This document shows, piece by piece, positions 1,886-25,086 of a stretch of 64,000 nucleotides of DNA (its first letter is position 1; every line of letters begins with the position of its first letter). The notes below the pieces were generated by a model. It saw only the letters and a list, made by a program, of their open reading frames with translations. It made no database searches and had not been told where the DNA came from. Location of the stretch: positions 1,695,050 to 1,759,049 of the forward strand of contig OZ220722.1 of assembly GCA_965116815.1 (NCBI GenBank), read 5' to 3'. A program made the position numbers and the translations under genes. Source of the stretch: Candidatus Poribacteria bacterium (GTDB taxonomy: Bacteria > Poribacteria > WGA-4E > WGA-3G).

Positions 1886-2009
1886 TACTACCTTTTTGGA
1901 ATCTTTAAATCGTGTAGGGTGGATTCCTGTATCCACCCTATATTGCTGTCGGCTGAACCAGAAGTGCCTACGAACCAAAGATGCAGTTTATTCCCCGATG
2001 TAATGTTCC

Positions 2010-5000
2010 CTATTCTTCTCCAAGCGAGATGTGAAATATTCCACGATCTTTGATAGCACTATAGAGTTTATCGTTAATGACAGCAAGAGCAGCAGTTTCA
2101 CCGAGTGCTTCTGAAGAAACTTGCTTCCATTGATTACCGGTATCCAAGCGATAGACTCCAGCATTACCAGCACCATAAACTGTAGGACCCTCCACAGCAA
2201 ATCTGTCTATAATGGGACGTGTACTCGCACTATCGGTTAGCACGCGCCAGTGTGCGCCAGTTTCTGAACTCAACACGCCTTCGTCTGTTGCGACATAAAC
2301 TGTTGAATCAGCAAAGGTTATCTCCTTGAAATGGGTAAAATGAAGCGGTAGACTTGGTGTAACATCTCTCCAGCTGCTCCCTCCATCAAGCGACTGAAAC
2401 AGCTTACCATCGCGTTTTCCGACGTAGATGGTTTCTCCCGAAACCGCTAATTTGAGATCCTGGCTGTCGTTGTCATAAGATTCTTGGCTCATGTCTGTTA
2501 ATCCTGTGCTTATCCACTCCGGGGCACCAAGTCTCCACTTAAAAAGTGTACGTCTGTGCTCAGCGTAGAACACATCGTTACAAACTACGATCATTCTGGT
2601 TGTCGCCTCCTTCCCACGTATAGGAGGTGGAACGATTGATACGACTGCGTGATGTTCTTTTTTAGAACCCTCAGATAAGTGAGTCTTTTTCGCTGCCTCG
2701 CTATCTGCTCGTAACTTACGAGATAATGCTTTATCATCAGAAGCGGGTATGCCTTGAATGGGACTGTGTATATTGCCATCTATAGATACGCGGGAAATTT
2801 GCAAGTTGTTAGTTTCAGGTGAGATAAGATAAAGATTATTGTCATCAACTACCAATTTTGAATTAAAGTAGTGGGAGATACGCGCTCTGTCGGGTTTTAA
2901 TGATTCGGTCGTAATTGTAGTCACCTCCCCAGTAAACCTCTCGGTAATTGAGAACTTTTTCCAAGACGCACCTTCGTCAGTTGATTGATACACCGCATAA
3001 CCATTATGCGCGTATAATCTATTGTTGAACGTAACTAAATCCTTCAACCTTGTTCCAGCCATCCCATCTATAAGTAACTGCCACGATTTCCCGCCATCAG
3101 TTGTGCGACGAATCCCAAAGGGATTAACTTGGTAAAATGTCGTCTCGTTTACAGCCACAACTGGAAGCCTATTGATCATGAACAGATTCCCATCTCCTGA
3201 AAGCTCTGTCCAAGTTTTTCCGTTATCTGTTGAACGATGGCGTTGGTCGGCAGTTGACGCTAAAAGCACTTCACCAACAGCCGAAATCTTCATGCCAGAT
3301 GGTATGTATCGATCATAAGATTTATAACTGGGTGTTATTTCCGTCCATGATGCTCCTAAGTTAGCCGAATGGAAAATTTTGAGAGTATGCGACTCATTTC
3401 TTGGCACTTCTTGGTCTACCGTTATTGGCGTGAATCCCAACAGATCGGGCCCTGTCCCGATATAGAGATTATTCTCAGACACCGCCAAGGAGTAAATGGC
3501 TCTTGATGTCTCCACTGGCAACTTTTTCCAAATACCTAAATCGAGACGATAGAGACCGCGCCCTGTACCAGCAAACACTGTGTTTTGAACAGCAGCGACT
3601 GTGGAAATCGTTTTGTTTGCCAATCCATCATTAAATAGGTTCCATTGTGTCCCACCGTCTGTAGATCGATAAATTCCTTTATCTCTAAGGGCAAGATACA
3701 TCGTGGAATGGGCTTGCGAGTAGGGACGAGGTGACCTCGCCCCTACTTCATCAATGATGATGAGACCGACAGCTTGTCCCTTTGGTCTGGGACCAATCGT
3801 CCTCCAAGTTTCACCGCTATCATCCGAAGTAAATATTTCATCGGTGGATACTATGTAAAGGATATCACCGTGTTCTGCCATCGGCATTAGCGATTTACCA
3901 ATTGGAATATCTGTGTTGACGCTTGTCCACGCGGTTGCATCTGTTCTTAGTCTGTATATTCCTGTCGGAGCAATAGTATAGACGGTACCTTCGGATGTCG
4001 CGAAGATATCGCGTACCTGTCCCCCTGGCGGCGCGTTTCCCTGCGTCCACTGCGAAGTAGAAAACTTGGCGGAGTCCTCCAATGTAGCAGATGTTGTGGT
4101 AGTTGTAGAGACTTGTGTGCCAGTTCCGCTGCTTTTACCCGCAGCAGCCTGTCCACCTCGGTTTCGCACAGCTGGTTTCACCGCAATATCAAGAGTGATA
4201 GGTGTGTCAATGATTTCAATGGTAGGTTCGGATTGTGCTTCAAAACTGTATGGTCTCTGAAAACGAGCAAGGTATTGGCTGCTCGCGCCGAGCAGCAATA
4301 TGACCAAAGCTACAGCCGTGCCGAAAGCCGCCCACGGTAGCAAGGGTTTGCCAACCGGAGGCTGTATCGGTTTCATATTAGCCACTTCCCGCATGATACG
4401 CTCAGTTACTTGAGCAGGGAACGGGATACTTCCAAGTGTTTCGCGAACCAAAAGTTCTTCTTGCTGTTCCTGTAAACGCTCGCGTCCCCGGCGAAGTCGA
4501 CTCTTAATCGTATTCACCGACACCCCTAAGAGTTTCCCGATCTCCTTCGCCGTCATCTCTCCGAGATAGTGGAGCGTTACCACTGTGCGCTCACTTTCCG
4601 GCAGCTTTGCCAGAAGTTTTTTGACGAGTTCATGGCGATGTTCGGTGCTCTCTGTCAGCCGTTGTTCCGATACGTAATGTGTGTAAGAAGATTCTTCGAT
4701 TTCTTCCACAGGCGTGTCCTCCAACGATTGCATCACAGATTTGTTCTTTATGTTCTTTTCGAGCCATTTAAGGCAGAGTCGATTGGCGATGACATACATC
4801 CATCCGGAGAACTGCTTTGGATTCCTGAGCTGCGCAAGATTCTTATATACTTGAAGGAAAGTATCTTGCGTAATCTCTTCGGCAACATGAAAATCGCCAA
4901 CTTTTCGCCACGCAAGCGCGTGAATACCTTTCTGATGCTTTCGGACTAAGGCATTGAACGCTGCGTCATCACCGGACAAGATTTTACGAATTAGTTGAAC

Positions 5001-5018
5001 ATCGTCTTTTGTTTCCAT
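2010..5018 (-). CDS. ECF sigma-70 factor (regions 2 and 4) fused via one TM helix to a large extracytoplasmic BNR/Asp-box beta-propeller domain
   Basis: From the ATG at 5018 (METKDDVQLIRKIL...). Sigma-2 motif FNALVRKHQKGIHALAWRKVGDFHVAEEITQDTFLQVY and sigma-4 ESERTVVTLHYLGEMTAKEIGKLLGVSVNTIKSRLRRGRERL. Hydrophobic segment LLPWAAFGTAVALVILLLGASSQYLA. Then repeated SxDxGxTW boxes (STDGGTQW, STDNGKTW, TTDGGKSW, STDEGASW, SLDGGSSW). Confidence 0.8.
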   Translation of the reverse strand: METKDDVQLIRKILSGDDAAFNALVRKHQKGIHALAWRKVGDFHVAEEITQDTFLQVYKNLAQLRNPKQFSGWMYVIANRLCLKWLEKNIKNKSVMQSLEDTPVEEIEESSYTHYVSEQRLTESTEHRHELVKKLLAKLPESERTVVTLHYLGEMTAKEIGKLLGVSVNTIKSRLRRGRERLQEQQEELLVRETLGSIPFPAQVTERIMREVANMKPIQPPVGKPLLPWAAFGTAVALVILLLGASSQYLARFQRPYSFEAQSEPTIEIIDTPITLDIAVKPAVRNRGGQAAAGKSSGTGTQVSTTTTTSATLEDSAKFSTSQWTQGNAPPGGQVRDIFATSEGTVYTIAPTGIYRLRTDATAWTSVNTDIPIGKSLMPMAEHGDILYIVSTDEIFTSDDSGETWRTIGPRPKGQAVGLIIIDEVGARSPRPYSQAHSTMYLALRDKGIYRSTDGGTQWNLFNDGLANKTISTVAAVQNTVFAGTGRGLYRLDLGIWKKLPVETSRAIYSLAVSENNLYIGTGPDLLGFTPITVDQEVPRNESHTLKIFHSANLGASWTEITPSYKSYDRYIPSGMKISAVGEVLLASTADQRHRSTDNGKTWTELSGDGNLFMINRLPVVAVNETTFYQVNPFGIRRTTDGGKSWQLLIDGMAGTRLKDLVTFNNRLYAHNGYAVYQSTDEGASWKKFSITERFTGEVTTITTESLKPDRARISHYFNSKLVVDDNNLYLISPETNNLQISRVSIDGNIHSPIQGIPASDDKALSRKLRADSEAAKKTHLSEGSKKEHHAVVSIVPPPIRGKEATTRMIVVCNDVFYAEHRRTLFKWRLGAPEWISTGLTDMSQESYDNDSQDLKLAVSGETIYVGKRDGKLFQSLDGGSSWRDVTPSLPLHFTHFKEITFADSTVYVATDEGVLSSETGAHWRVLTDSASTRPIIDRFAVEGPTVYGAGNAGVYRLDTGNQWKQVSSEALGETAALAVINDKLYSAIKDRGIFHISLGEE

Positions 5019-5496
5019 CAGAAAGAATACTCCGTGATTATGTTCCGCCGAGTTTGGACGGATACAGCAATAAATAGACAAGTTCTCTCAATATCAAGTT
5101 GCTTCCGTATTGGAGAGTATACCAAACACAACGCTAAAATAAAACCCATAAATTTGAAACATCACTTTGCCGTTCTATAATTAAAGATACTATTTTGAGA
5201 CGGAAAGGGTGCATAACCTGAAATAAATTGAATTTTTCGACTGAAAAGCCGCAATTTTAAGCAAGGCTTACGCTAATTCTTTGCTTCTGGTATTTGCTTA
5301 GACAGCACTCAGAGAAGCGTGTGGCGCGTAAGCCTCACAATATTGATGGAACAGAATAGCCAAAGAGGTCTATCACTTTGTCCTATAGAGAAGGGGCGAA
5401 GACCCCTTTCTTACATTCTACTTTGGTTTCTCAGGAGGCGTTAGTTCCTGAGGAGGAGTCGGCTCTTTGAGGTGTTCTAAAGCCGCTTGTGTACCC

Positions 5497-5994
5497 TCAA
5501 TTGGTGCGTTCAATTTCTACCAACTTATCAATGTAAGCCGCTTTGTACGTTTCCCAGTCATCTGTCGGCGGAATATCAAAAACGCCTGACTGCCACAGAT
5601 TCGGATTGTCTTCCAGAAGTGCCAAAGCATGCCGATGTAACAGGGTGGACGCATACTCGTAGAAGTTTCCTATGATGATGCCTCTCTCCAAAAGCATCTG
5701 AAGCCACTCTGCTCGTGGATACCTTGCATCTATCTTACTTATTGTAAGGTTACTGCTATAGCTTTCAATTTCTGTTCCGTTGCCCTTGCGCGATAGGCTT
5801 ACTTCGGTTTTTGCATGTCCCGTATTGTAATCCGCATCTAACTCCTTCATCAGTTCTTGGGCATTTTGGGAACCGGTATATTTCTTGTCACTGGACCGCA
5901 TACTCGGTGATATAATTTCAAGTTCAGTGGTTGTCATTGAAGATGTACCGGATACCGAACGTACACAGAACCGCATACTCAAAGTACTTTCCAT
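5497..5994 (-). CDS. Hypothetical protein; short paralogue of 8336..9187 (conserved DARYPRAEWLQ..PPTDDWETYKAAYI C-domain), lacks a signal peptide
   Basis: The ORF's C-terminal ~90 aa align to the 8336..9187 product. GGAGA lies upstream of the ATG. A conserved leader hairpin precedes it. Confidence 0.5.
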   Translation of the reverse strand: MESTLSMRFCVRSVSGTSSMTTTELEIISPSMRSSDKKYTGSQNAQELMKELDADYNTGHAKTEVSLSRKGNGTEIESYSSNLTISKIDARYPRAEWLQMLLERGIIIGNFYEYASTLLHRHALALLEDNPNLWQSGVFDIPPTDDWETYKAAYIDKLVEIERTN

Positions 5995-6009
5995 TCTTAG
6001 TATCTCCTT

Positions 6010-6747
6010 TTAATTTAGAGGCGTTATGTTGCCTCGTGACTGTTTTAAGTTTCCCCATGTTGTTGCCAACTTGGTTTGTGAGGTTACAGACAATCCATCT
6101 GTATTTGGAATACCAGGCCCTGTGACCTTGAAATTGTCAAATCTTGCTGTATAATTGGTAAGACCTAATCCTACTCTACCGGTCGGAAATTCAGGAAATC
6201 CGTGTAGAGGTTCTAAAGCTATGGGGTCCAAAACTTGTTTCCCATTTATCCGAAAAGTCAAGTGCTTTCCACGAACACTCACTTGGAAGGTCGCCCATTT
6301 TCGCAATTTCAACAAGCGGTGGGGTTTCTCATCGTAGGTTAAAAAAGAGCGTCCACGCAAATTGCCACCAAAACATATCGCTATGGGTTCCACTGCGGGG
6401 CCCGCAAAATCATCAATCCCACATACGACCCCCCATGTCCCTTTAATCCGGACAGCGATCACAATGATTCCAGGGCCATGTTTTTCGAGGGGTTTAACAT
6501 TAAATTCGATGTCATAATCTTGCCAGGTATCTTCTCCAATCGTGAGTAAACGGGGTGCGTCCCTATTTATTATTTCGAGTTCGTCGTCAATAATTTCCCA
6601 AGGACTAGGACCGGGGGGATTGACGCCGAACATAACTAATTCTTGATAGTTGACGAGCTCTTCATCATCAAAAGTGTCCAGAAACGTACCCGCTTGAGCG
6701 GCGAAAATAAAGAGAAGAATGCACAACCCAATAATAACTGATTTCAT
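6010..6747 (-). CDS. Secreted DUF1080 / LamG-like jelly-roll domain protein (putative)
   Basis: Signal peptide MKSVIIGLCILLFIFAAQA. The Trp/Gly-rich pattern resembles the 3-keto-disaccharide-hydrolase-like (DUF1080) family. The assignment is weak. Confidence 0.45.
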   Translation of the reverse strand: MKSVIIGLCILLFIFAAQAGTFLDTFDDEELVNYQELVMFGVNPPGPSPWEIIDDELEIINRDAPRLLTIGEDTWQDYDIEFNVKPLEKHGPGIIVIAVRIKGTWGVVCGIDDFAGPAVEPIAICFGGNLRGRSFLTYDEKPHRLLKLRKWATFQVSVRGKHLTFRINGKQVLDPIALEPLHGFPEFPTGRVGLGLTNYTARFDNFKVTGPGIPNTDGLSVTSQTKLATTWGNLKQSRGNITPLN

Positions 6748-6896
6748 TTTTCTTTCTCCTTCAGAGGCGTTATGTTGCCTCGTGTTTGAAGTTTAACCTT
6801 TGAACAATATTTGCCAAAAAAGGCGAGGTATTTGCGTAACACAATGAACATCGCTGATAATTCGGCTCTCATTAGTATGTCGTGTCGTACTTCGCG

Positions 6897-8312
6897 TTAA
6901 ATATCTGACCGGAAGAACTTCAGAAACGCCAAGGTTGTCAACGCCACCGCAAAGAAGCATAGGAAGAGCACATCCACCAGTGAGTGCCTTAACGTTTCAT
7001 CTAAAGACGGGACTGCTATAGGGGGTGGCTGCGCAATTGTGTAGAGATCATCGGGATGGTAACCTCTGACGGAAGCGTGATCTACTATTTTACTGAACAG
7101 ATCCGCGTGAAGTGCGCCATAATAACGATCCGCTGCTTCAAAATAGTTGTGTTTTTTAATCTTTCCAGTCTGTGTCAAGTTCGTGGTGAGATAAATTAAG
7201 GAAGATGTCGGTGTGATTCGTGAGAGGGTTTCGCCGACCGCTTCCTGTCGCGCTTTCTCGCGCTGATAGTTCCTATCTATCTGGTCGGTGCGATCCGCGA
7301 ATTTCTGCTTATATGCGCCTTCAAGCGGTTGCACCAGTTTATCGAACTCCTGTCCTACTGCAAACATCTGTTCATGGGAAGCCTTCGGACGATCTTTCCA
7401 GAATTCTTGGTGCATCTCCTTTTTTCTTTCTTCAAGTTCAGCATTGAAATTTTCGCGGAGTGCAGTCTTTTCGAGATAAACGCTCTGCGCGGTTTTTGTG
7501 GGTACGATTAATTTCGCCGCGACAAACCCGATGCGTGGCACAATCAGCACAGCGAATACCCAGACAGTGAAGGCGACGATGAGGGCTGTTTTGGCGTTGT
7601 CTAAATAGGTGGAAATCACCGTGCCGATGGCGAAAAATACACCGATGTAGAGCAGCGCGGCGAGCATCAGAATCATGACGCGTGGGAAAACCTCTGGCTC
7701 ACCAAGGGGAAACCCTTGCCAGACGATGACGAGTAAACCGAAGAGAAACGCTACCAAAAACGGCACCACGAACACGATGTATCCGCCAATGAGTTTGCTC
7801 CATAAAAAAAGGTCGCGTGGCAGGGCGTTCGCTAAATTAATCCGCAACGTGCCAGCTTCTCTTTCCCCAGCAACTGCATCGAAGGTAAACAACAGCGCCA
7901 GCAAACTGAAGACGGTGCCGACTACGAACAGAAAATCGAGATGCCCTAAAAGGTGGGCAATAGAGTCGGAAACGGTCGCCGGCGGACCTTGGGTAATCCC
8001 ATTACGCGTCATCCCCAGATAACTTGGCAGTGCGTCACCCAATCCATTTGCGAAAACGCTCAAGGCGGTCGGTTTGAGGAAGAGTTTAGAGACTTCCAGT
8101 TCCGGTTCGAGTTCCATACTCGGATTTATGATCTTTTCTTCGACGTTTGACAGTTTAACGGATTCTTGGTAATCCAAAAGGTTTTTACGATAGTTTTGAT
8201 GATTGATAGAGAGGGTCAACGGAACAAGCAATAAACACATCAAAAGGAGCATAACGAACCGGACGCTCAGAATGTGATGCATCATCTCTTTTTGAATCAA
8301 TGTCACTAACAT
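6897..8312 (-). CDS. ABC-2 family transporter permease-like membrane protein with C-terminal cytoplasmic coiled-coil extension (paralogue 1)
   Basis: Six predicted TM segments. The FDAVAGEREAGTLR motif is typical of ABC-2 permeases. There is a ~150 aa charged extension and a final TM. ~75% identical to 9307..10728. Confidence 0.6.
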   Translation of the reverse strand: MLVTLIQKEMMHHILSVRFVMLLLMCLLLVPLTLSINHQNYRKNLLDYQESVKLSNVEEKIINPSMELEPELEVSKLFLKPTALSVFANGLGDALPSYLGMTRNGITQGPPATVSDSIAHLLGHLDFLFVVGTVFSLLALLFTFDAVAGEREAGTLRINLANALPRDLFLWSKLIGGYIVFVVPFLVAFLFGLLVIVWQGFPLGEPEVFPRVMILMLAALLYIGVFFAIGTVISTYLDNAKTALIVAFTVWVFAVLIVPRIGFVAAKLIVPTKTAQSVYLEKTALRENFNAELEERKKEMHQEFWKDRPKASHEQMFAVGQEFDKLVQPLEGAYKQKFADRTDQIDRNYQREKARQEAVGETLSRITPTSSLIYLTTNLTQTGKIKKHNYFEAADRYYGALHADLFSKIVDHASVRGYHPDDLYTIAQPPPIAVPSLDETLRHSLVDVLFLCFFAVALTTLAFLKFFRSDI

Positions 8313-8335
8313 ATTGAACTCCCTTTAATTTTATT

Positions 8336-9187
8336 CTAATTTGGCTCGTCAGGAGGAAGTGGTTCCTGAGGATGCATCGGTTCTTCGGAGCGTTCTAAAG
8401 CCTCTTGTGCGCGCGCAATCTGTTTCCTTGCATGCTCAAGTTGCTTCCTGACATGCTCAAGCTGCTGTGAATTCAACGCTTTATGTTCAAGTTGAGTCAT
8501 AGCGCGCACAATTGATTCCTTACTGCGTTTAAGGGCAAGTTTAATTTGCTCTCTACTACGTTCAATCTGTTTCCCAGTGTGCTTACTTACCAACTTATTG
8601 ATGTAAGCGGCTTTATAAGTTTCCCAATCATCTGTTGGTGGAATACCGCGAAACCCTGCCTCATACAAATCTGGATTGTCTTCCAAGAGTACCAAAAGGT
8701 AACGCTTTGATAGCAAGGACGCATACTCGTCGGAGTTATCTATGGTGATGCCTTTATCCAAAAGCAGCTGAAGCCATTCCGCTCGTGGATATCTCGCATC
8801 TATCTCACTTATTGTGAGGTCGCTGCTATAAGTCGTAGTTCTTGGCCGTTCCAATATCTCCCCGTTGCGAATCACTAAGCTGCCATCGGATATAATCACT
8901 TTGGTCTCTGGTAGTTTCTTTGACAGTCCCTTATTGTAATCCACATTTAACGCTTTCATCAATTCCCGCGCGTTTTGAGGACCGATGTACCTTTTATAAT
9001 TGGATGACACTGTCGAAGTGAATTCAATGGATTCACTTTTTACCTGTGTCTTCGACGATCCAGTTTCGGAACTTTGTGTATATGCATAGGTGCCTCCCCA
9101 CAAAAGGATGGCGAGTCCTAAAGTTGCGAAGAATGGAAGTCTTGCGAGAGTTTTTCCGCAGTGAAAAATGCGTTTCATTTTTAGCAT
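8336..9187 (-). CDS. Secreted hypothetical protein with C-terminal coiled coil (long paralogue of 5497..5994)
   Basis: Signal peptide MLKMKRIFHCGKTLARLPFFATLGLAILLWGG. Shares the conserved central domain with 5497..5994. The C-terminus has heptad repeats (EHVRKQLEHARKQIARAQEALERSEE). Confidence 0.6.
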   Translation of the reverse strand: MLKMKRIFHCGKTLARLPFFATLGLAILLWGGTYAYTQSSETGSSKTQVKSESIEFTSTVSSNYKRYIGPQNARELMKALNVDYNKGLSKKLPETKVIISDGSLVIRNGEILERPRTTTYSSDLTISEIDARYPRAEWLQLLLDKGITIDNSDEYASLLSKRYLLVLLEDNPDLYEAGFRGIPPTDDWETYKAAYINKLVSKHTGKQIERSREQIKLALKRSKESIVRAMTQLEHKALNSQQLEHVRKQLEHARKQIARAQEALERSEEPMHPQEPLPPDEPN

Positions 9188-9306
9188 CTCCTTTTAATTC
9201 AGAGGCATTATGTTGCCTCGTGTTTGAACTTTAACCTTTGAACAATATGCGTCTGTATCCGAATGACGCGTTTTAAACGGTGTCGGCAATTCAGCTATCA
9301 TCAACA

Positions 9307-10728
9307 TCAAATATCGGAACGGAAGAATTTCAGGAATGCCACGGTTGTCAATACCACAGCAAAGAAGCAGAGCAGCAGCACATCCACCGCCGATTGACGG
9401 AACGTCTCTCCTAAAGTCGTTATCTCCAAAGATGGTGGTTGTGTAATTTTGACTCGTCTGCTTTGTCTGCTATAAGCATGATCTATAATTTTACTGAACA
9501 AATCTGTATAGAGCATCTCATAATAGCGATCACCTGTTTGAAAATAGGTGCTTCTTTTTGCCTTTCCAGTCTGTGTCAAGTTTGTAGAGATATAAATTAA
9601 GGAAGATGTCGGTGTGAGTCGAGAAAGCATCTGCCCCACCTGTTCTTGCCGTTCAGTTTCACGTTTATGATTCCGATCCAATTTGTTAGAATGGTTCTGG
9701 AATCTTGATCTATATTCCGCTTCAAGAGGTTTCATACGTTCATTAATTTTTTTCGAAATCTCCCCGCCTATAGATCTGCGTCCCTTCTCATCGGGCGGGA
9801 CTTCCATGATCATTTTCTGTTTTTCCTCTTCGAGTGCTGCGTTGAAATCGTCTCGCATGGCTGTTTTTTCCATATAGACACTCTGTGCAGTCTGTGTTGG
9901 TGCGATAAATTTGGCAGCAAGGAACCCAACGCGTGGCGTGATCAATACCGCAAACACCCAGACGGTAAAGGCAACGATGAGTGCCGTTTTAGAATTGTCT
10001 AAGTAGGTGGAAATCACCGTGCCGATTGCAAAAAAGACTCCAATATAAAGCAACGAGATGAGGATTAAACTGAGAACTCTCGGAAAAATTTCAGGTTCGC
10101 CGAGAGGGAACCCTTGCCAGACAAGCATCAGTAAGCCGAAAAGCAACGACACCAAGAATGGAACGACAAACACCGCGTATCCGCCAATCAATTTGCTCCA
10201 TAAAAATAGGTCGCGCGGCAGGGAATTCGCTAAGGTGATCCGAAGGGTGCCCGCTTCTCGTTCCCCGGCAACGGCATCGAACGTAAACAGTAGGGCAAGG
10301 AGACTAAAAACAGTACCGACTATGAATAGAAAATCAAGATGCCCTAACAGATTGGAAAGAGAGGAAACCAAGGCGGGTGCCCCTTGTGTAATCCCATTAC
10401 GTGTCATGCCGAGATAGCTCGGCAACGTATCTGCTAACCCATTTGCGAAGACGCTCAAAGGGGTCGGTTTGAGGATAAGTTTGGAAACCTCCAGTTCTGG
10501 ATCCAGTGGCATCCCTGGATTCATTGTGGTTTCTTCAATGTTTGTAAGTTTAACGGCTTCTTGGTAATCCACTAAGTTCTGGCGATAATTTCGGTAATTT
10601 GTAGAAAGTGTCAGCGGGACGAGAAGGAGGCACATCAAAAGAAGCGCGACGAAACGGACGCTCAGAATATGATGCATAATCTCTTTTTGAATCATAGTCA
10701 TTAACATTTGAATTTTCCTTTCACTCAC
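9307..10728 (-). CDS. ABC-2 family transporter permease-like membrane protein (paralogue 2)
   Basis: Same architecture and GEREAGTLR motif as 6897..8312. Confidence 0.6.
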   Translation of the reverse strand: MSERKIQMLMTMIQKEIMHHILSVRFVALLLMCLLLVPLTLSTNYRNYRQNLVDYQEAVKLTNIEETTMNPGMPLDPELEVSKLILKPTPLSVFANGLADTLPSYLGMTRNGITQGAPALVSSLSNLLGHLDFLFIVGTVFSLLALLFTFDAVAGEREAGTLRITLANSLPRDLFLWSKLIGGYAVFVVPFLVSLLFGLLMLVWQGFPLGEPEIFPRVLSLILISLLYIGVFFAIGTVISTYLDNSKTALIVAFTVWVFAVLITPRVGFLAAKFIAPTQTAQSVYMEKTAMRDDFNAALEEEKQKMIMEVPPDEKGRRSIGGEISKKINERMKPLEAEYRSRFQNHSNKLDRNHKRETERQEQVGQMLSRLTPTSSLIYISTNLTQTGKAKRSTYFQTGDRYYEMLYTDLFSKIIDHAYSRQSRRVKITQPPSLEITTLGETFRQSAVDVLLLCFFAVVLTTVAFLKFFRSDI

Positions 10729-10932
10729 TGATATTGAGGATTGCGTTTTTTCAAACTAATTTCGGTGAAGTGGTGTCTGTTTCCCTTTTATAATTAAGGA
10801 TACGGGTTTGGAGGGGAAAGGGTGCATAAAACGAAAAAACTGGATTTTCATCTCAGAAATTGTAAAAATGTTGAAATTGTTGGGTGGCTTTGAGAGGTGG
10901 CAATTGCTGATAATCAAATGTTATGTAAACGA

Positions 10933-10985
10933 AAAAAATCGTGCGGAGAACTATGTGTGTTTTACATGTCTCCGCACGATATTTA
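10933..10985 (-). terminator. Rho-independent (bidirectional) terminator downstream of the BNR lipoprotein gene
   Basis: Perfect 12-bp stem ATCGTGCGGAGA/TCTCCGCACGAT with a ~20-nt loop. It is flanked by an A-run on one side and a T-run on the other. Confidence 0.75.
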
Positions 10986-11012
10986 AACGCTTATGAAATA
11001 AATGAATGTCCA

Positions 11013-14873: not shown

Positions 14874-14896
14874 CTGTTTTGCCTCCTTGGGTGATT

Positions 14897-16999
14897 TTAC
14901 TGTGTTCGAGGATTCGGGATTACAACCGGGTCGAGTAATACTGGAGATTTTTGAGAGGGTGAATAAACACCGACTGCAGCACCAGCATCCGTAGCGAACC
15001 AGATTTTACCCTGACTGTCTTCAAATACCGACCAAACGCGGTTGCTCGGTAGACCATCGTCTGTGTTAATGTTTTGGAACGTTTCGCCGTTATACACACT
15101 CACACCAACACCGACTTCAGGGATTGGAATATTATCCTCGGCTTCGTGAACCTCAATCGTTAGGGGTAATTTTTTACTACCTGTGAACCAGAGATTGCCG
15201 TTGGTGTCTCGCAGGATACTCTCAACCTTATTCATTGGAAGTTCTTCGCTTTGTGGAAAGTGAACTAATTCTTTGCCATCGTAGCGACGGATGCCAGTAT
15301 ATTCGTCCCCTACGCCTTCTTGGGTAATCCAGAGATTATTCTGTGCATCAAACTGTAGGTTTGTTATTTGTCCGCTTTGCGACTGTCCCATCTCCCTGAA
15401 AGCGTTTAAATTTACATCAAGGTACCGGAAATCAGACGTTTGGAGGTTGTAATAGGTAATACCGGCGTAGCTGCCAAACCAAAAATTTCCTGCTGTATCC
15501 TGTGCAATCGCTGTAACTTGATTCCACCAATGCGGTAGAACCTCCATCCCTGTGGGTCCATTGAAGATAAGACTGCTAAACTTTTCACCGTCGTAGCGAC
15601 TCACACCTTCATCCGTGGCGAACCAAAGCGTCCCCGTTTTGTCCTCAAACATGTCCTGAATGGGACCGCGGAGGAGTCCATCGGCTCCGGTAAACGTCCG
15701 AAACGCTTGTCCATCATAGCGACTTATACTTTCTAATGGAGTAGGTGTCTGTGTTTTCATCTCCATTTCGTCCTGGACGGTATTAGCGAGTTCGCTTAAT
15801 GGCATATTGATGTATGACATATCTATAAACTTTGGTCTATTCAGCGCATTTGCGAGCATTCCATCCCCAAACCAGAGCATGCCCTGCCGGTCTTCAAAGA
15901 TAAGACCTGTCGTGTTTCGTGATAAGCCATCTTCTGTTGTGAAGGTTTGGAAGTTGTCTCCGTCATAACGTGTGATACCGTCGGCTGTGCCAAACCACAG
16001 CGCACCTTGGCTGTCTTCAAAGATAGTGAGCACAGTATTGGATGCTAAACCATCTGCTTCGGTAATTGTTCTTTCTATAAGAAGTTTGCCGGCATTGCTG
16101 GATGCGGGCTGCATGCCAGCACCCCTGTTCTGACTCGGGTGAGATGTCTGTCCGATCTGATTCCTAACATCGGGTTTAGCATCCGTATCAAGAACGATGT
16201 CGGTATCAATGATTTCAATAGTCGGTTCGGATCTCGCCTCAAGACTATACGGCTTCTGAAAACGGGCAAGATACTGATTACTGGCACCTATCATCAACAG
16301 AATCACGACCGCGGCACTCCCAAGAGCCGCCCACGGTAACACCGGTTTCCCACTCGGAGGAGATACCGGGGTTATATCAGCAACCTCCCGCATGATACGC
16401 GCTGTCAAATCAGCGGATAATTCAACGCCGCCGAGCACTTCACTCACCAAGGGTTCTGACGCTTTTAAACGTTCTCGTCCCCGGCGAAGTCGTCCCTTAA
16501 TTGCACTCACCGACACCCCTAAGTATTTGCTAATTTCCTTAGCTGTCATTTCGCCGAGATAGTGGAGCGTCAGCACTGTGCGTTCGCTCTCTGGGAGCCT
16601 TTTCAAAAGGTTTTTAACGACTTCAGAACGGTGTTCCGCTGCTTCTGTCTCGCGCCGCTCCGACATATAATGTTGATACGAGGATTCCTCTATCTCTACC
16701 ATAGGTGTGTCCTCCAAAGATGGCATCGTGGATTTACGCCTTTTAAGCCAGTTAAGGGCAAGTCGATTTGCTATGACATACAGCCAGCCAGAAAAACATT
16801 TCGGATCCTTTAAAGCCCCGAGTTTTTTGTAGACCTGGATGAAAGTATCTTGCGTGATCTCTTCGGCATGGTGAAAATCACCAATCTTCCGCCAGATGAG
16901 GGCGTGAACACCCTTTTGATGCTTTTCAACTAAGGTGCTGAATGCCGAATCGTCGCCTGACAGAACCCTATAAATCAATTGAACATCGTTTTCTAACAT
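14897..16999 (-). CDS. ECF sigma-70 factor fused via one TM helix to an extracytoplasmic Reg_prop (two-component-regulator propeller) domain
   Basis: The sigma-2/sigma-4 regions are ~75% identical to those of 2010..5018. TM LPWAALGSAAVVILLMIGASNQYLA. Then NTVLTIFEDSQGALWFGTADGITRYDG-type Reg_prop repeats. Confidence 0.8.
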   Translation of the reverse strand: MLENDVQLIYRVLSGDDSAFSTLVEKHQKGVHALIWRKIGDFHHAEEITQDTFIQVYKKLGALKDPKCFSGWLYVIANRLALNWLKRRKSTMPSLEDTPMVEIEESSYQHYMSERRETEAAEHRSEVVKNLLKRLPESERTVLTLHYLGEMTAKEISKYLGVSVSAIKGRLRRGRERLKASEPLVSEVLGGVELSADLTARIMREVADITPVSPPSGKPVLPWAALGSAAVVILLMIGASNQYLARFQKPYSLEARSEPTIEIIDTDIVLDTDAKPDVRNQIGQTSHPSQNRGAGMQPASSNAGKLLIERTITEADGLASNTVLTIFEDSQGALWFGTADGITRYDGDNFQTFTTEDGLSRNTTGLIFEDRQGMLWFGDGMLANALNRPKFIDMSYINMPLSELANTVQDEMEMKTQTPTPLESISRYDGQAFRTFTGADGLLRGPIQDMFEDKTGTLWFATDEGVSRYDGEKFSSLIFNGPTGMEVLPHWWNQVTAIAQDTAGNFWFGSYAGITYYNLQTSDFRYLDVNLNAFREMGQSQSGQITNLQFDAQNNLWITQEGVGDEYTGIRRYDGKELVHFPQSEELPMNKVESILRDTNGNLWFTGSKKLPLTIEVHEAEDNIPIPEVGVGVSVYNGETFQNINTDDGLPSNRVWSVFEDSQGKIWFATDAGAAVGVYSPSQKSPVLLDPVVIPNPRTQ

Positions 17000-17410
17000 C
17001 AGAGAACCTCATAATAAATGAGTAAATCAGCACACATCTACGTTCTCCACAGATTAGATCTGCGGAGATGCCAAATACGCAAACTCTATTTCCAACTTCA
17101 CTTTATATTAAAGACACATTTTTAAAGCGAAAGGGTACATAATTTGAAAAAAATCAAAAAATTACTCAAATTTCCGACCTTACTTTATATTAAAGACACA
17201 TTTTTAAGAGGGAAGGGTACATAATTTAGGCGTTAGGCAAATTGAACAGAGAATCGGAAACCCATTTGCTGAAAATGCCTCGCAGTGAGAGTATTACGTT
17301 GCATATAACCCCCTAAATCCGCCAACCCCCATATCCCCCCTTATCAGGGGGGTAGGGGGACTTTAAGAGGAAATGCGTAAGTCCTAATATAATTTGATGT
17401 CATGCAAACC

Positions 17411-17467
17411 AAAACAAAAATCGCGCGGGGAGCTATGTGTGTTCTACATGCCTCCGCACGATTTTTA
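17411..17467 (-). terminator. Rho-independent (bidirectional) terminator downstream of BNR lipoprotein copy 2
   Basis: Stem AAAAATCGCGCGG / CCTCCGCACGATTTTT with one mismatch. T-run in the minus sense. Homologous to the 10933..10985 terminator. An additional 13-bp perfect inverted repeat (GACCAAGAACTCG...CGAGTTCTTGGTC) at 17489..17541 abuts the stop codon. Confidence 0.7.
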
Positions 17468-17545
17468 AACGCTTATGAGATAAACAGATTTGACCAAGAA
17501 CTCGTCTACAGATACTTTTGGTAAAGCGCGAGTTCTTGGTCAAGG

Positions 17546-20500
17546 TTAACGTTTAGGACGACGCAGCACAACGCCTCCCTGTCCAGCGACCCACAGCCTC
17601 TTCCCATCTTTAACACGTGTGATGACATACAGGTCATTGTCAACGCCAGTATGCTCCCGTTTCCACGTTTCACCACCATCTGTCGAATGAATGATGGTTC
17701 CAGCAGCACCGACGGCGTAGATTTCATGTTCAGAGAGTGCCAAAATATCGTAAAGCGTTTCCGACATACCGCTCAACTTTGACTCCCAAGTGAATCCACC
17801 GTCAGTGGTGGATAGGATAATCCCGGCGCGTCCGACTGCCCATCCCTTTCTTTTCGTGGTGAACGACACGCCGTGAAGGTCGTAGCCTGCGTGTGTCTCG
17901 TGGAACTTCCAGTATTCACCGCCGTTGACTGTTCGCTGAATTACGCCGTTGCTCCCAACGGCCCAGCCGAGGGGTGCAAACTTCATATCAACGCTTCTGA
18001 GGTTTTTACCGGTTGAAGTGTGCTGCAATTTCCAGATCGGACCGCCGTCCAGATTGTGGATAATTTCTCCATTTTCACCAACTGCCCATCCCTCAGAGAA
18101 TTTACCAAAAGCAGCTTCATTTATCGAGAGTGGAGGTAGTTGATGCTGGGGAAGATCAGGTAGTTCGCGCTGTGGAAGTTCTTGATTGTTGTCTGTTGAC
18201 CAATCATCGCCATTGGTCGTATAGAGCAGGGTTCCATCCCTTTCCATCGCCCAGCCCCATTTTGGCTCAAGACTGATGAAGTGGACATCGACGATGCGGG
18301 CCATTGTGTTGGTTTGCAACCGCTTCCAATTTATTCCACCGTCCTCTGTTGATAGCAAGGCTCCGTTATCTCCAGCGATCCAACCGTTCTGCTCATTGAG
18401 AAACAGCACATCGCGAAAATTATCAAGCGGTTCACCGAGTTGATGGTGCCAAGTTTTTCCGCCATCTGTCGTGGCGTAAATCTGACCCGTAGATGCCTCT
18501 GCTTCATTGGAGCCACCAATATCAGCCCCGACCGATTCCCTGTCGAAAATTTGTTCTCGACCCACTACCCAACCACGCCCATCCGGTAGAAAATGCGCGT
18601 TGGTAATTTGAATTGAGTATCCAAACGGACGTTCCGCTGCCATTTCTTCTATCCAACTTTCCGAGTCACCATTTTCACTTTCCTGCCCAAACAAGGAATT
18701 CAGTGTTTTCCAACTCTCACCTTGGTTTTGGGTGGTAAGAATCATCTGTCCAGCGTTAATTGCCCAAGCTGTTGCCCAAGCCTCGGTGTGATTGCGGAAT
18801 TTCACCGTAACCAGATGGATATCCAAATTCAATCCTTTAATGTCTCGCCCTGTGTCCAGATCTCGTTTCCAATTCTCTCCACCATCTGTGGTAAGAAGTG
18901 AGGTTCCGTCTTCCATTATCACCCAACCCGATGTGGCATTCAGAAAATGGATACCAATGCAACGCTGATGGGTTGTGGCTTGGATTTGCCAGTAATCACC
19001 GCCATCAACTGTGTGTAGGATAAATCCACCTGTCCGCCGTTGGGGTGCAACTGCCCATCCTTCTTGACTGTTGATGAAATGCAGGTGCGTGATCGGTTGC
19101 TGGGTTGTCCCTGTTTGCTGAAGCGTCCAGGTTATGCCACCATCGTTTGTACGCAGGATCTGCCCTCTATCGACACCGATCCATCCTTCTTTCGGATTGA
19201 TGAAGTGTATCGCACGAATATTGCGAAAGTTTTTCAACCCTTCACGGACAACGTGCCACGTCTCGCCCCCGTTTTCAGTTCGCAGCAGTACGCCTTGACC
19301 GCTAATCCAACCGTGTTTTTTATCAATGAAAACAATCCGTTGTAATTCTTCGGTCACGCTGCTCTGTTGTGTCTGCCATGTCGTGCCACCATCTGTGGTC
19401 CGTAAAATGGTACCGCCGTCACCGACTGTCCACCCTTCCTCTGCAGACAGGAAATAGGTATCGGTGAATTTGGATTGCCAACTTCCTTGACGGACGATTT
19501 CCCAGTGATATTCAATCGGTTCAATCGGTTTCTCATCGGTTTCTATGTCTTGCGCAGCAGGTGGCAACTCGGCAATGAACTGCTCCGTGTCTACAGAGTA
19601 GCGCATCGCAATGCCACCTTCACCCACAAGGAGGATACCATCGGGAGAAAGCGAAAAACTATAGAGATCGTTGGACGTGCCGCTTTTCTGTGATTCCCAC
19701 GTCATTCCACCATTGATGGTGGTTAAAATGACCCCTTCATCACCGACAATTAATCCGTGATTTGCATCGGCAAAGTAGACTTTGTTCAGATGTGCCTGCG
19801 TCCCACTCCGCTGGAATTTCCACGTTTTGCCGCCATCAAGCGTGTGTAGAATCTCACCAAATTGCCCGACCACCCAGCCGGTATGTTGATCGATAAAGTA
19901 AGCAGCGTAGAGTTCGTTATAGCTGTTGCTGTTCTGTCGTTTCCACGTCAATCCACCGTCTTGGGTGTGAAAGACAATACCGGGCCACCCGACGACCCAA
20001 CCCTCTGTCTCATTGAGGAAAAAGATGCCTTTAATCATTTCGTGGAAATAGCGCGGTGCTTGTTGTACCCACGTTTCTCCACCGTCTGTTGTATGGAGCA
20101 CAGTGCCCAAATCTCCAACGATCCAGCCCTTCTGAGGATTGATGAAATGGAGAGCATTGAGAGTATACCACCATCCGCTGGTTTGCCGTTCCCATGTCTG
20201 ACCGGCATCGGTTGTGTGCAGGATAAGTCCGCCGTCGCCAACCGCCCAGCCTTCTTTGTCAGTGACAAAAGATAAGTTCCGAATGCGGTGCCACGTGTCC
20301 ATCTCAATGTTCGTCCAGGTCTTGCCACTGTCGTCACTCGTCGCAATTGTGCCTTTCTCTCCGACGGCAACCGCCCGGTCAGCATCCGCAAACGCGACAC
20401 TCTGCAGATCATCAGCTGTCGTGCCACTTCTCATGTTCCATGTTACCCCGCCATCGGTCGAGTGTAGGAGGGTACCGTTCCAACCGACTGCCCATGCCTC

Positions 20501-21427
20501 TTTAGAAGTCGCAAAATGAACACCCATCAGGTCGTTTTTGGTTTGGTTTTCTGTTAATCTCCAGTTTTCCCCGCCATCTTCGGTCCGAATGATGAACCCG
20601 CCCTGTGCAACCGCCACGCCGTAGTCATCATCAATAAAATGGAAGTCATAGACGGTTGGACGGACATGTCCATAAATCATCGGGAGTCGACTGTATTGGG
20701 TCTGCCATTCTGTTCCACCGTTAGTTGTGTGGAAAATGGTGCCGTCTGTGCCACCGCTCCACCCCTTATAAGGGGTCGCAAAAAATACCGTATGGAGGTT
20801 GCAAACCTCCGATGTATCGTGTTCCGTTCTCGCAAGCTGATCCTGTCTACGCCAAGTTTGGCTACCGTCTGAAGTGACAAAAATCCTGTCGTAATCTCCC
20901 ACGATCCATCCGCGATGCTTGTCTACAAAGTGGATGCCACCGAGTCCGAATTCGCTCGCTTCCTGATGATGCCATGTTTTTCCACCATTTTTTGTTTGTA
21001 ACAGCCCATCCTGACCAGCAATCCAACCGGTCTTTGAGTTGAGGAAAAAGACATCCATAAGCAGCGTGTGCGCTTGATTCCTTTGCAGGGTCCAGTGTCG
21101 TCCACCGTCGTCAGTAATAGCAATTAACCCTTTGTCGCCAACTGCCCAACCGTTACGAAGGTTTGTGAAGTAAACCGCTTTGAAATCCTCATGCGTGTTC
21201 ACTGTCTGTTTTTCCCAACTTACGCCGCCATCAGCCGTATGAAGAATCCATCCCTGATGCCCCACAATCCATCCGTGTTTGGCATCCGCAAAGTAGATGT
21301 CCGTAAAATGGGTTTGCCAGTCCGCTATACGAGTAATCTCTTTTTTCACACAACCGGTGAACAGGAAAGGAATTGCCAAAAGAGTTGCTATTGAAAAACA
21401 AGTGATGTATTGAAAAATCTTTTTCAT
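17546..21427 (-). CDS. Giant Ycf48-like/BNR-repeat lipoprotein (copy 2, ~90% identical to 11013..14873)
   Basis: Start at the ATG at 21427 (MKKIFQYITCFSIATLLAIPFLFTGC) with an AGGAGA RBS. The ORF track gives 17546..21451. Long stretches are >90% identical to copy 1 at the nucleotide level. Confidence 0.8.
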   Translation of the reverse strand: MKKIFQYITCFSIATLLAIPFLFTGCVKKEITRIADWQTHFTDIYFADAKHGWIVGHQGWILHTADGGVSWEKQTVNTHEDFKAVYFTNLRNGWAVGDKGLIAITDDGGRHWTLQRNQAHTLLMDVFFLNSKTGWIAGQDGLLQTKNGGKTWHHQEASEFGLGGIHFVDKHRGWIVGDYDRIFVTSDGSQTWRRQDQLARTEHDTSEVCNLHTVFFATPYKGWSGGTDGTIFHTTNGGTEWQTQYSRLPMIYGHVRPTVYDFHFIDDDYGVAVAQGGFIIRTEDGGENWRLTENQTKNDLMGVHFATSKEAWAVGWNGTLLHSTDGGVTWNMRSGTTADDLQSVAFADADRAVAVGEKGTIATSDDSGKTWTNIEMDTWHRIRNLSFVTDKEGWAVGDGGLILHTTDAGQTWERQTSGWWYTLNALHFINPQKGWIVGDLGTVLHTTDGGETWVQQAPRYFHEMIKGIFFLNETEGWVVGWPGIVFHTQDGGLTWKRQNSNSYNELYAAYFIDQHTGWVVGQFGEILHTLDGGKTWKFQRSGTQAHLNKVYFADANHGLIVGDEGVILTTINGGMTWESQKSGTSNDLYSFSLSPDGILLVGEGGIAMRYSVDTEQFIAELPPAAQDIETDEKPIEPIEYHWEIVRQGSWQSKFTDTYFLSAEEGWTVGDGGTILRTTDGGTTWQTQQSSVTEELQRIVFIDKKHGWISGQGVLLRTENGGETWHVVREGLKNFRNIRAIHFINPKEGWIGVDRGQILRTNDGGITWTLQQTGTTQQPITHLHFINSQEGWAVAPQRRTGGFILHTVDGGDYWQIQATTHQRCIGIHFLNATSGWVIMEDGTSLLTTDGGENWKRDLDTGRDIKGLNLDIHLVTVKFRNHTEAWATAWAINAGQMILTTQNQGESWKTLNSLFGQESENGDSESWIEEMAAERPFGYSIQITNAHFLPDGRGWVVGREQIFDRESVGADIGGSNEAEASTGQIYATTDGGKTWHHQLGEPLDNFRDVLFLNEQNGWIAGDNGALLSTEDGGINWKRLQTNTMARIVDVHFISLEPKWGWAMERDGTLLYTTNGDDWSTDNNQELPQRELPDLPQHQLPPLSINEAAFGKFSEGWAVGENGEIIHNLDGGPIWKLQHTSTGKNLRSVDMKFAPLGWAVGSNGVIQRTVNGGEYWKFHETHAGYDLHGVSFTTKRKGWAVGRAGIILSTTDGGFTWESKLSGMSETLYDILALSEHEIYAVGAAGTIIHSTDGGETWKREHTGVDNDLYVITRVKDGKRLWVAGQGGVVLRRPKR

Positions 21428-21505
21428 CTGTTTTGTCTCCTTTAGTAGCAATCAGCAAAGACGCAAACGTTTAGGATCGTTTCTTTTTTTACGGGCAGCC
21501 GACGG

Positions 21506-22732
21506 CTATTTTTCAGAGGGTAGATAAACCCCGACTGCGGCACCAGCGTCCGTAGCAAACCAGAGTTTGCCACTGCTGTCTTCAAACACCGACCAGACTC
21601 GGTTACTCGGTAGACCGTCGTCTGTGTTAAAGTTTTGGAACCTCTCACCGTTATAGACACTTACACCAGTATTGACGACATTGTAAAGCATGCTAACGCT
21701 TTCCTCAGTTTCGTTTATCGTCGGAGGCAGGTTCTTGACACCGGTAAACCAGAGGTTGCCGCTGCTATCCTGCATGATGTTGTCAACGCTATTCATTGGA
21801 AGTGCTTCACTTTGTGGAAAGGTTGTCAGTTTTTTGCCATCGTATCGACGTATACCGCTGTCTTCCTCGTCCATACCATCTTTACTCATCCAGAGGTTTT
21901 CCTTCGCATCGAACTGCTGATCTGTTATGTTTGCAGTTGGGGCATTCCCCATCTCTTGGAAAAGGGTGAAGTCCTCGTCGATAGCAAAATGACGGAAACG
22001 GTTCGTTTGGAGGTTGTAATAGGTAATGCCAGCGGTGCTGCCAAACCAAAAATTTCCTGCTGTATCCTGTGCAATCGCTTTAATTTCGTCCCACCGATCC
22101 GGTAATACTTGCATCCCGATCGGTCCGTTCATAGTGATAGTGTTGAAAGTTTCCCCGTCATAGTGACTCACACCAGCCGATGTCGCGAACCAAAGCGTAC
22201 CAGTTTCGTCTTCAAAGATATCTTTAATGGTATCACGGGGGAGACCGTCGGCGGTCGTAAAAATCCTGAACTTTTCGCCGTCGTAGCGACTCACGCCTTT
22301 TAACCGAATGGGCTTTCTCGTTCCTGCTGATGTTTCATCATAGGGTGTGAGATCGAGTTCACTCAATGGCGTTTCCATCCAAGACATATCCATAGGCTTC
22401 CCTCTTTCCAGAAAGCTTGAAAGCACACCGTCAGCAAACCAAAGCATTCCTCGTTGGTCTTCAAAGATGAGACCTATCGTGTTCCGTGAAAGTCCATCTT
22501 CTGTTGTGAAGGTTTGGAAATTCTTCCCATCATAGCGGGTGAGTCCATCGGTCGTTCCGAACCACATCGTGCCACTGCTATCTTCAAAAATGGTGAGCAC
22601 CGTATTGGATACCAAACCATCCGCTTGGGTTAAGGTCTTTTCGATTTTAAGCTCCGCTGCGCTGGCAACATATACTACCCAATTCAACAGTAGAAACATA
22701 GCAAGCCACATTGCATGAGATCGTTTTCGCAT
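21506..22732 (-). CDS. Secreted stand-alone Reg_prop beta-propeller protein (paralogue of the C-terminal domain of 14897..16999, without a sigma domain)
   Basis: Probable start MRKRSHAMWLAMFLLLNWVVYVASA (signal peptide) at 22732. The repeats TLTQADGLVSNTVLTIFEDSSGTMWFGTTDGLTRYDG are near-identical to the fusion protein. There is no room for a sigma domain before the next gene. Confidence 0.7.
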   Translation of the reverse strand: MRKRSHAMWLAMFLLLNWVVYVASAAELKIEKTLTQADGLVSNTVLTIFEDSSGTMWFGTTDGLTRYDGKNFQTFTTEDGLSRNTIGLIFEDQRGMLWFADGVLSSFLERGKPMDMSWMETPLSELDLTPYDETSAGTRKPIRLKGVSRYDGEKFRIFTTADGLPRDTIKDIFEDETGTLWFATSAGVSHYDGETFNTITMNGPIGMQVLPDRWDEIKAIAQDTAGNFWFGSTAGITYYNLQTNRFRHFAIDEDFTLFQEMGNAPTANITDQQFDAKENLWMSKDGMDEEDSGIRRYDGKKLTTFPQSEALPMNSVDNIMQDSSGNLWFTGVKNLPPTINETEESVSMLYNVVNTGVSVYNGERFQNFNTDDGLPSNRVWSVFEDSSGKLWFATDAGAAVGVYLPSEK

Positions 22733-22961
22733 TGAAAAACTCCTTCTCTCGGAAATATGGAAGCATTCTAATTTTTGGATTTTTGCTATCCCGAAATGTG
22801 TCGTCCATTTGATGTAAGTGGGGTTCAGAATCAGTTGTAGTTCCAGTATGACCGAAAGCAAGGTAACTGATACCGAGTAGTAACAAACAGACAAGAAGTA
22901 GGTTAATTATTACAAAGCGCATTTTCTCTTTCCTTATTTAAAGTTAAGAATTACGCTGAAC

Positions 22962-23780
22962 TTACAAGCGGTAATTTGCTAATTTGATATCCGCCCAAGT
23001 CGTTGTCACCTTATCGCTCGGTGAAACAGCGAGGAAGTTTCCCGACATTGCTTGTTTGATCTCGGTTCCACTGAGCCCGCGCTGCCATACCGCTGCTTCG
23101 TCAATAGAGCCATTGACAAATGCATATTTATTTTTTGCGCATCCTATCCAGACGGGTGCGATATTGTCACCAGCGAAGTTGAATTCCTTCTTTTCTTCGC
23201 CCATGACTTCACCGTCTAAATAGATTTTCGTCGTTTTCCCGTCGTAACTTCCCGCAACATGATGCCACCGTTTTTCCTTCATTTTGTGCGGAACGATGAA
23301 TTCTTGTCGATCCGAACCCCCATGGTCATCCCGTGACCCCAGAAGCAACCAGATTTCTGGTCCGCGACCGATGTCAATACTACCGATGCCATAAGAGGCT
23401 CCCCACTTGACTTCAAACCAATGACAGCCCTTATCAATCCAATGCACCTTCTTGCCTTTCCACGTTTCTTGATAATAGACCCATGCCATCATTGTTATTT
23501 CATCTACGACTTTTAACTTCTCCCGAGACGGAATATTGACGCAATCCTGTCCGTTGTTCGTAATGTGGATTGCATCCCCATACTTACCCTTGACAATCTC
23601 AGTATTTTCAATGATCTCCGCGTCGAGACCATTACCCGACGTATCAACAATCGTCTGCTTTTTAACGTTGTCAAAGTCCAGATAAAAAACGAGGTCTTCA
23701 TTAAGCCCTGCGTTCGCGTGAGTCGTCACTAACAGAATAACAACATTAAAAAAGATAGTACCGATGGGTAACCGTGCCAT
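22962..23780 (-). CDS. Secreted LamG-like (concanavalin-A-like lectin/glucanase, Laminin_G_3) domain protein
   Basis: Signal peptide. The DTSGNGLDAEI..GKYGDAIHITNNGQDCVNIP motif is characteristic of LamG_3. Confidence 0.6.
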   Translation of the reverse strand: MARLPIGTIFFNVVILLVTTHANAGLNEDLVFYLDFDNVKKQTIVDTSGNGLDAEIIENTEIVKGKYGDAIHITNNGQDCVNIPSREKLKVVDEITMMAWVYYQETWKGKKVHWIDKGCHWFEVKWGASYGIGSIDIGRGPEIWLLLGSRDDHGGSDRQEFIVPHKMKEKRWHHVAGSYDGKTTKIYLDGEVMGEEKKEFNFAGDNIAPVWIGCAKNKYAFVNGSIDEAAVWQRGLSGTEIKQAMSGNFLAVSPSDKVTTTWADIKLANYRL

Positions 23781-24321: not shown

Positions 24322-25086
24322 TTAGAGCGAAAGGATGCCACCCTCAACGAGCATCGGGGCACCGGTCATATATCTTGATTCGTCGGAGGCTAAATAGACT
24401 GCTGCCCAAGCAATATCTTCCGGTTCACCGATACCCAACGGATGCATCTCTTTGATTTCTTTGTTGATTGCCTCTGGGTCTGGCTGCTTCGATAGGAATT
24501 CTTGATAGAGTTCGGTGTTGATCGTGCCGGGGCAGAGGCTGTTAACACGGATGTTGTCTTCAGCATACCGAACCGCCATGCTGCGTGAGAGGTGTACCAC
24601 AGCGGCTTTGGAGGAGGTATAGGCGGGATGCATCGGAAACCCGACGTAGGCAGATTCACTCGCCATATTGATAATCGAACCGCCACCGGCTTCGCGCATT
24701 AATGGGATTATCGCCCGTGAGACGAGATAGATGCTTTTCACATTGACAGCGTATTGCCGATCCCAGTCCGCCTCAGAGATCTCTTCTAATTCACCTACGA
24801 CAGCAATACCGGCGTTGTTGAACAACACATTTGGATTGCCAAGTTCGGACGTGACCTGTGCAACAGCGTTCTCAATTTGTGCTGCGTCGGTTATATCACA
24901 CTCGCAGAAGAGGGCGGTTCCACCGGAGGCTTGAATCTGTTGCGTGGTCGCTTCGCCACGCTCAGCGTTGATATCCCAGATAGCGACAGCTGCACCTTCA
25001 CCCGCGAAAAGTTCTGCGCTTTTCGCACCGATGCCTCGCGCTGCACCTGTGATAACTGCGATTTTGTCCTTAAGTCGGTCTGCCAT
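24322..25086 (-). CDS. SDR family NAD(P)-dependent oxidoreductase
   Basis: TGAARGIG Rossmann motif, NNAG, and catalytic YTSSK. Confidence 0.85.
   Translation of the reverse strand: MADRLKDKIAVITGAARGIGAKSAELFAGEGAAVAIWDINAERGEATTQQIQASGGTALFCECDITDAAQIENAVAQVTSELGNPNVLFNNAGIAVVGELEEISEADWDRQYAVNVKSIYLVSRAIIPLMREAGGGSIINMASESAYVGFPMHPAYTSSKAAVVHLSRSMAVRYAEDNIRVNSLCPGTINTELYQEFLSKQPDPEAINKEIKEMHPLGIGEPEDIAWAAVYLASDESRYMTGAPMLVEGGILSL

Follow-up and report, generated by a model that had tools for sequence, protein, structure and literature searches.

What kind of system is encoded by the eleven minus-strand genes at positions 2010-23780 of a 64 kb stretch of a Candidatus Poribacteria (sponge-symbiont) genome, here called the window? 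A reading of the sequence alone had proposed one undescribed surface signalling module. A literature search found no published description of the locus and to that extent the proposal stands, but one-piece transmembrane sigma factors are already known and the single-module reading is rejected, as promoter flavour and synteny divide the locus in two. The best explanation as a whole, which we hold to be probable, is a hypervariable envelope-signalling island between conserved short-chain dehydrogenase (SDR) and ThuA genes, with one-piece transmembrane ECF sigma factors, exchangeable outer sensors and two circuits. From sequence comparison, the first unit appears to be composed of the sigma-Reg_prop fusion, the secreted Reg_prop protein and the BNR lipoproteins, and the second of the sigma-BNR-propeller fusion and the ABC2, DARY and DUF1080 genes. 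Coordinates are given in the table.

Features of the locus and its borders, in order of position within the window
Feature	Position	Strand	Evidence
ThuA-like gene, right-hand boundary of the variable interval	905..1885	+	Pfam ThuA
Terminator-like hairpin downstream of the final gene	1895..1960	-	dG -17.9, z -2.7
Sigma-BNR-propeller fusion	2010..5018	-	Pfam Sigma70_r2/r4, one TM helix, BNR/Sortilin/PSII_BNR-like propeller
Promoter-like motif TGCACCCTTTCCGTCTCAAAATAGTATC, upstream of sigma-BNR-propeller gene	5186-5213 (region 5019..5213)	-	
Terminator-like hairpin closing the ABC2/DARY string	5385..5425	-	dG -12, z -2.7
Degraded DARY copy	5400..5994	-	165-aa ORF 5497-5994 with DARYPRAEWLQ domain
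Secreted DUF1080 protein	6010..6747	-	3keto-disac_hyd PF06439 (formerly DUF1080), E 2.5e-7
Second leader hairpin copy, before DUF1080 gene	6748-6810	-	dG -12.2, z -2.4
ABC-2-type permease-like protein a (ABC2a)	6897..8312	-	Pfam ABC2_membrane_2 (E 1.8e-30) + DUF3526
Full-length DARY protein	8336..9187	-	DARYPRAEWLQ domain; no significant Pfam match
Leader with hairpin GAGGCAACATAATGCCTC, before ribosome-binding site of full-length DARY	9188..9250	-	dG -11.6, z -2.0
ABC-2-type permease-like protein b (ABC2b)	9307..10728	-	Pfam ABC2_membrane_2 (E 8e-32) + DUF3526
Promoter-like motif TGCACCCTTTCCCCTCCAAACCCGTATC, GTATC flavour, upstream of ABC2b - DARY - ABC2a - DUF1080 - DARY'	10799..10826	-	
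Intrinsic terminator after BNR1	10925..10990	-	dG -24.7 kcal/mol, z -7.0, then U-run
Giant Ycf48-like/BNR lipoprotein copy 1 (BNR1), 1286 aa	11013..14873	-	PSII_BNR E 8.5e-131, 17 stretches
Sigma-Reg_prop fusion, 700 aa	14897..16999	-	Pfam Sigma70_r2/r4, one TM helix, Reg_prop (E 1.5e-32)
Tandem ECF-type promoter-like motif, upstream of sigma-Reg_prop	17113..17221	-	TGTACCCTTyC-N-TGTGTC x2, 82 nt apart
Two strong hairpins after BNR2	17395..17545	-	dG -24.8 (z -6.8); dG -25.4 (z -3.5)
Giant Ycf48-like/BNR lipoprotein copy 2 (BNR2)	17546..21427	-	PSII_BNR E 9e-125, 15 stretches
Secreted single Reg_prop beta-propeller	21506..22732	-	Pfam Reg_prop only, E 1.7e-29
Secreted LamG/ConA-like protein, 272 aa	22962..23780	-	Pfam Laminin_G_3, E 5e-20
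SDR gene, left-hand boundary of the variable interval	24322..25086	-	Pfam adh_short

ORF calls and Pfam searches recovered all eleven genes with the domains and paralogies that the sequence-only reading had listed. Its statement that each family is present in two to three copies holds for the paired families and fails for the LamG and DUF1080 proteins, which are single-copy. The locus is neither a Sus/PUL nor a secretion system, and a separate anti-sigma gene is absent, so that the earlier exclusion of a classical sigma/anti-sigma pair is also borne out. The segments 11015-16065 and 17548-22632 are related by tandem duplication, offset by ~6.55 kb. Amino acid identity of the paralogues is 81% for the BNR pair, 70% for the ABC2 pair, 64% for the Reg_prop domains, 57% over 358 aa for the sigma-TM modules and 55% for the DARY pair. 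The dN/dS ratio of 0.13-0.19 in the pairs other than DARY (0.13 for both the BNR and the ABC2 pair, 0.15 for the sigma domains) shows that purifying selection acts on both copies. The flanking genes are conserved in related loci, ThuA in L004, L008 and L037 and SDR in L004, L005, L007, L008, L029 and L044; in some relatives the interval between them has a minimal content of three genes, for sigma-Reg_prop, the secreted Reg_prop protein and the giant Ycf48-like lipoprotein.

In the sigma-Reg_prop fusion the sigma2 and sigma4 domains occupy residues 1-180, followed by a linker helix (~190-210), the TM helix (220-238), a conserved juxtamembrane segment (241-283) and the propeller (306-690). It scores 96.9 bits with the curated ECF model TIGR02937, whose cut-off is 42.9 bits. 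The sigma-BNR-propeller protein, which most likely starts at 5018 and has 1002 aa, scores 95.9 bits and carries its TM helix at 226-244, followed by a large outer BNR/Sortilin/Ycf48-like region. In an alignment of 20 sequences conservation is highest in sigma2 and sigma4, with dozens of invariant columns. The linker, TM helix and juxtamembrane segment gave no Pfam match even at E<=5, with no recognisable anti-sigma domain, and AF2 modelled the sigma/linker part with low confidence. The best structural matches of the Reg_prop propeller model are the periplasmic sensors BT4663 (lowest E, 4e-16), BT4673 and BT3049 of Bacteroides hybrid two-component systems (HTCS). Since these top matches are periplasmic and the paralogous Reg_prop protein has a cleavable signal peptide, the propeller is predicted to face outward.

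Sigma and propeller form one gene, as is confirmed by full-length fused homologues of 47-93% identity in many assemblies, several of them contigs longer than 5 Mb or whole chromosomes; a sigma-Reg_prop protein of 100% identity lies on a 5.85 Mb contig. One genome scan returned at least 576 relatives, of which the best 80 are all from Poribacteria, most of them aligning over residues 1-300/348 alone. Complete sigma-TM-sensor fusions in other Candidatus Poribacteria genomes number 87, several being from whole-chromosome records. Common to the family are the ECF sigma domain, a linker of ~40 aa, a single TM helix and ~45 aa of juxtamembrane sequence that is peculiar to it and is kept among paralogues with unrelated sensors. 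The outer domains fall into six classes: BNR-like propeller (the commonest, 56/87), Kelch, LRR, Reg_prop, M16-like and WD40. Among 1.84 billion representatives just 246 clusters (50% identity) contain the linker-TM-juxtamembrane module; with few exceptions it lies at residues 182-298, in proteins 450-1283 aa long. The fusions form a large, undescribed, Poribacteria-specific and lineage-expanded family in which the sensor domain was exchanged repeatedly.

The division into two circuits is suggested by a bipartite motif, TGYACCCTTTC-N-GTRTC, upstream of both sigma genes and of the ABC2 operon. The window contains four sites (17221, 17139, 10826, 5213; 0.3 expected from shuffles), every one intergenic, on the coding strand and inside this locus; the LamG - Reg_prop - BNR2 unit has none. 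A tandem pair with the identical 82-nt spacing precedes the sigma-Reg_prop orthologue in L001, and the GTATC-flavour motif is found 71-120 nt upstream of the ABC2 orthologues in L001, L002, L024 and L029; the DUF1080 gene of L024, L029 and L047 bears a GTATC-type motif of its own. The motif before the sigma-BNR-propeller gene is followed by a conserved leader of ~150 nt with the extended -10-like TGGTATACT (5116-5124); motif and leader are both conserved before orthologues while the surrounding DNA has diverged, the motif block in L019, L026, L047 and L048, and the leader in L037 as well. In other genomes it is located 50-200 nt before genes for sigma fusions, ABC2, DUF1080 and DARY proteins, and it emerges as a phylogenetic footprint. 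In the tree of sigma domains the -10 flavour is clade-specific and the sensor class is not. This co-variation favours promoters that are cognate and autoregulated, and two parallel circuits. Linkage to ABC2/DARY/DUF1080 is seen in 5/5 cases of GTATC vs 3/9 of GTGTC, which are small numbers. In the fetched loci the motif, as defined, is found before only 17 of the 82 genes for sigma fusions, and the remaining sigma clades must, on this evidence, use diverged sites or none. Judged only from position, conservation and co-variation, the motif is a candidate promoter.

The sequence-only reading also claimed reuse of regulatory DNA, and this was confirmed: besides the four motifs there are two terminators homologous to each other and a pair of leader hairpins. 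The second hairpin after BNR2 has a U-run downstream of it and is a sequence homologue of the terminator after BNR1. A leader of ~50 nt with the hairpin GAGGCAACATAAYGCCTC is common to the 5' sides of the full-length DARY and DUF1080 genes.

In the first unit, BNR1 begins 23 nt past the stop of the sigma-Reg_prop gene and the two are probably co-transcribed. BNR2 has ~1293 aa from MKKIF (the ORF reaches 21451) and about four beta-propellers; both giants carry the lipobox LFTGC. For the secreted Reg_prop protein the most likely start is M55 (22732), with the signal peptide MRKRSHAMWLAMFLLLNWVVYVASA, giving 408 aa as in its homologues. It is paralogous to the sensor domain of the fusion, with 64% identity over residues 301-684, and its best matches include dozens of Reg_prop-only homologues of 403-427 aa; its gene is always adjacent to a giant BNR gene. 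The proposed synteny was upheld, a giant BNR lipoprotein accompanying sigma-Reg_prop or its secreted paralogue in 13/13 Reg_prop-bearing loci. Since genomes of the L029 and L044 types have Reg_prop and the BNR giant without the sigma-Reg_prop fusion, the lipoprotein is independent of that fusion; it may act as a receptor. The LamG protein, with a hydrophobic, signal-like N-terminal segment, is encoded by the first gene of the LamG - Reg_prop - BNR2 unit and has homologues close to sigma fusions in 6/84 loci.

In the second unit, ABC2b has six hydrophobic segments and two large loops and weakly matches NosY (E 0.004). The two ABC-2 permeases were rightly described as lacking a nearby ATPase: the sole ABC ATPase of the window is MalK-like (53108-54235), and none was found within 10 kb of 30 related loci with ABC2 homologues. 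The full-length DARY protein consists of an N-terminal membrane anchor, a conserved alpha/beta domain of ~130 aa (IDARYPRAEWLQ...), a variable coiled coil and a Pro-rich tail. Pfam gave nothing significant for either DARY ORF, with weak sub-threshold matches for the long one alone; the AF2 model has a mean pLDDT of 74, and fold and profile searches returned nothing informative. DARY seems to be Poribacteria-specific, the named ones among its 417 homologues being all from Poribacteria and almost none carrying a Pfam domain. The short copy lacks the membrane anchor and coiled coil, the family C-terminal tail (ALEHLKEPTPPQELTPPEKPK*) is found past its stop codon in a different reading frame, and comparison with the long copy gives a dN/dS of 0.34; it is a deletion remnant. 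The DUF1080 protein is 3-keto-disaccharide-hydrolase-like, with a ConA-like fold and a signal-like N-terminus. ABC2, DARY and DUF1080 recur alongside sigma-BNR-propeller genes in related loci.

We infer that a ligand or partner would bind the outer propeller and that the sigma domain would then be released, most likely by regulated proteolysis, with a first cut in or beside the juxtamembrane segment, whose invariant G-x-S|NQYL resembles a signal-peptidase-type site, and a subsequent intramembrane cut. No site-1 or site-2 protease gene is present in the window. Such release has precedents in the one-piece sigma/anti-sigma proteins IutY (Prc and RseP) and SCO4117 (PMC8999054, PMC5826349). The free sigma would transcribe from the family-specific promoters, the motif before each sigma gene giving positive autoregulation and that before exported cargo giving cargo control. 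Sigma-Reg_prop would thus act on itself and the giant BNR lipoprotein (GTGTC flavour), and sigma-BNR-propeller on itself and the ABC2-DARY-ABC2-DUF1080 string (GTATC flavour). The secreted Reg_prop and BNR2, both of them duplicates, probably either cooperate or compete with the tethered sensor.

A possible, though doubtful, alternative is that the locus mainly serves glycan harvesting or surface remodelling and is PUL-like in function, with glycans of the host sponge matrix bound or cut by the BNR giants and by the DUF1080 and LamG proteins, some export or import by the ABC-2 proteins, and the sigma fusions as glycan-responsive regulators. The Reg_prop sensor is closest to the heparin/heparan-sulfate sensor BT4663, DUF1080 is a 3-keto-disaccharide hydrolase family, LamG has a ConA-like lectin fold, and the remaining window is rich in glycan genes (GH129, FGE-sulfatase maturase, sugar ABC importers). 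However, SusC/SusD, a recognised glycoside hydrolase catalytic family and an ATPase for the ABC-2 proteins are all absent, and among solved structures the BNR giants are closest to the Ycf48 assembly factors (E 1.9e-25), which bind peptides and not glycans. This alternative addresses the output and does not conflict with the signalling part of the island model.

Less probable, and in our view unlikely, is a sigma factor active while membrane-anchored, as in ToxR/CadC, with propeller binding shifting its oligomeric state or conformation and no need of proteolysis. There is no anti-sigma domain to destroy and the cytoplasmic linker is short (~40 aa), and HTCS Reg_prop sensors such as BT4663, the best structural match, signal via dimer rearrangement and not cleavage. 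At initiation, however, a sigma factor necessarily moves with RNA polymerase, and conservation of the juxtamembrane segment despite unrelated sensors is more easily explained by a common site for processing or recognition than by a sensor-specific conformational relay. In IutY and SCO4117, the one-piece sigmas that have been characterised, activation is by removing the extension (PMC8999054).

It is very improbable that the sigma domains are vestigial cytoplasmic anchors of surface or repeat proteins and that another regulator binds the upstream motif. There is indeed overlap between the WD40, LRR and Kelch sensors and the 'eukaryote-like' repeat proteins that have long been known from Poribacteria, many of them with TM helices (PMC3909097), but sigma2 and sigma4 are the most conserved domains, score above the ECF threshold and have a dN/dS of 0.15, and the motif co-varies with the sigma clade. 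That the sigma-propeller ORFs are frameshift or misassembly artefacts is a reading for which no favouring evidence was found and which is refuted by identical fusion types in independent assemblies, whole chromosomes and contigs >5 Mb, by the 87 complete ORFs and by the strong conservation of the junction itself (linker, TM helix and juxtamembrane segment).

With respect to known systems, the Reg_prop outer domain of the island is of the type used by Bacteroides hybrid two-component systems for glycan sensing. The claim that a single-chain transmembrane sigma factor is an undescribed kind of protein is rejected: IutY/ECF243, SCO4117/ECF52 and ECF48/53 likewise join, as known or predicted, an ECF sigma domain via a TM helix to an outer domain, and a C-terminal extension of beta-propeller type (WD40-like) has a precedent in ECF57 (PMC8999054, PMC5826349, PMC7826278).

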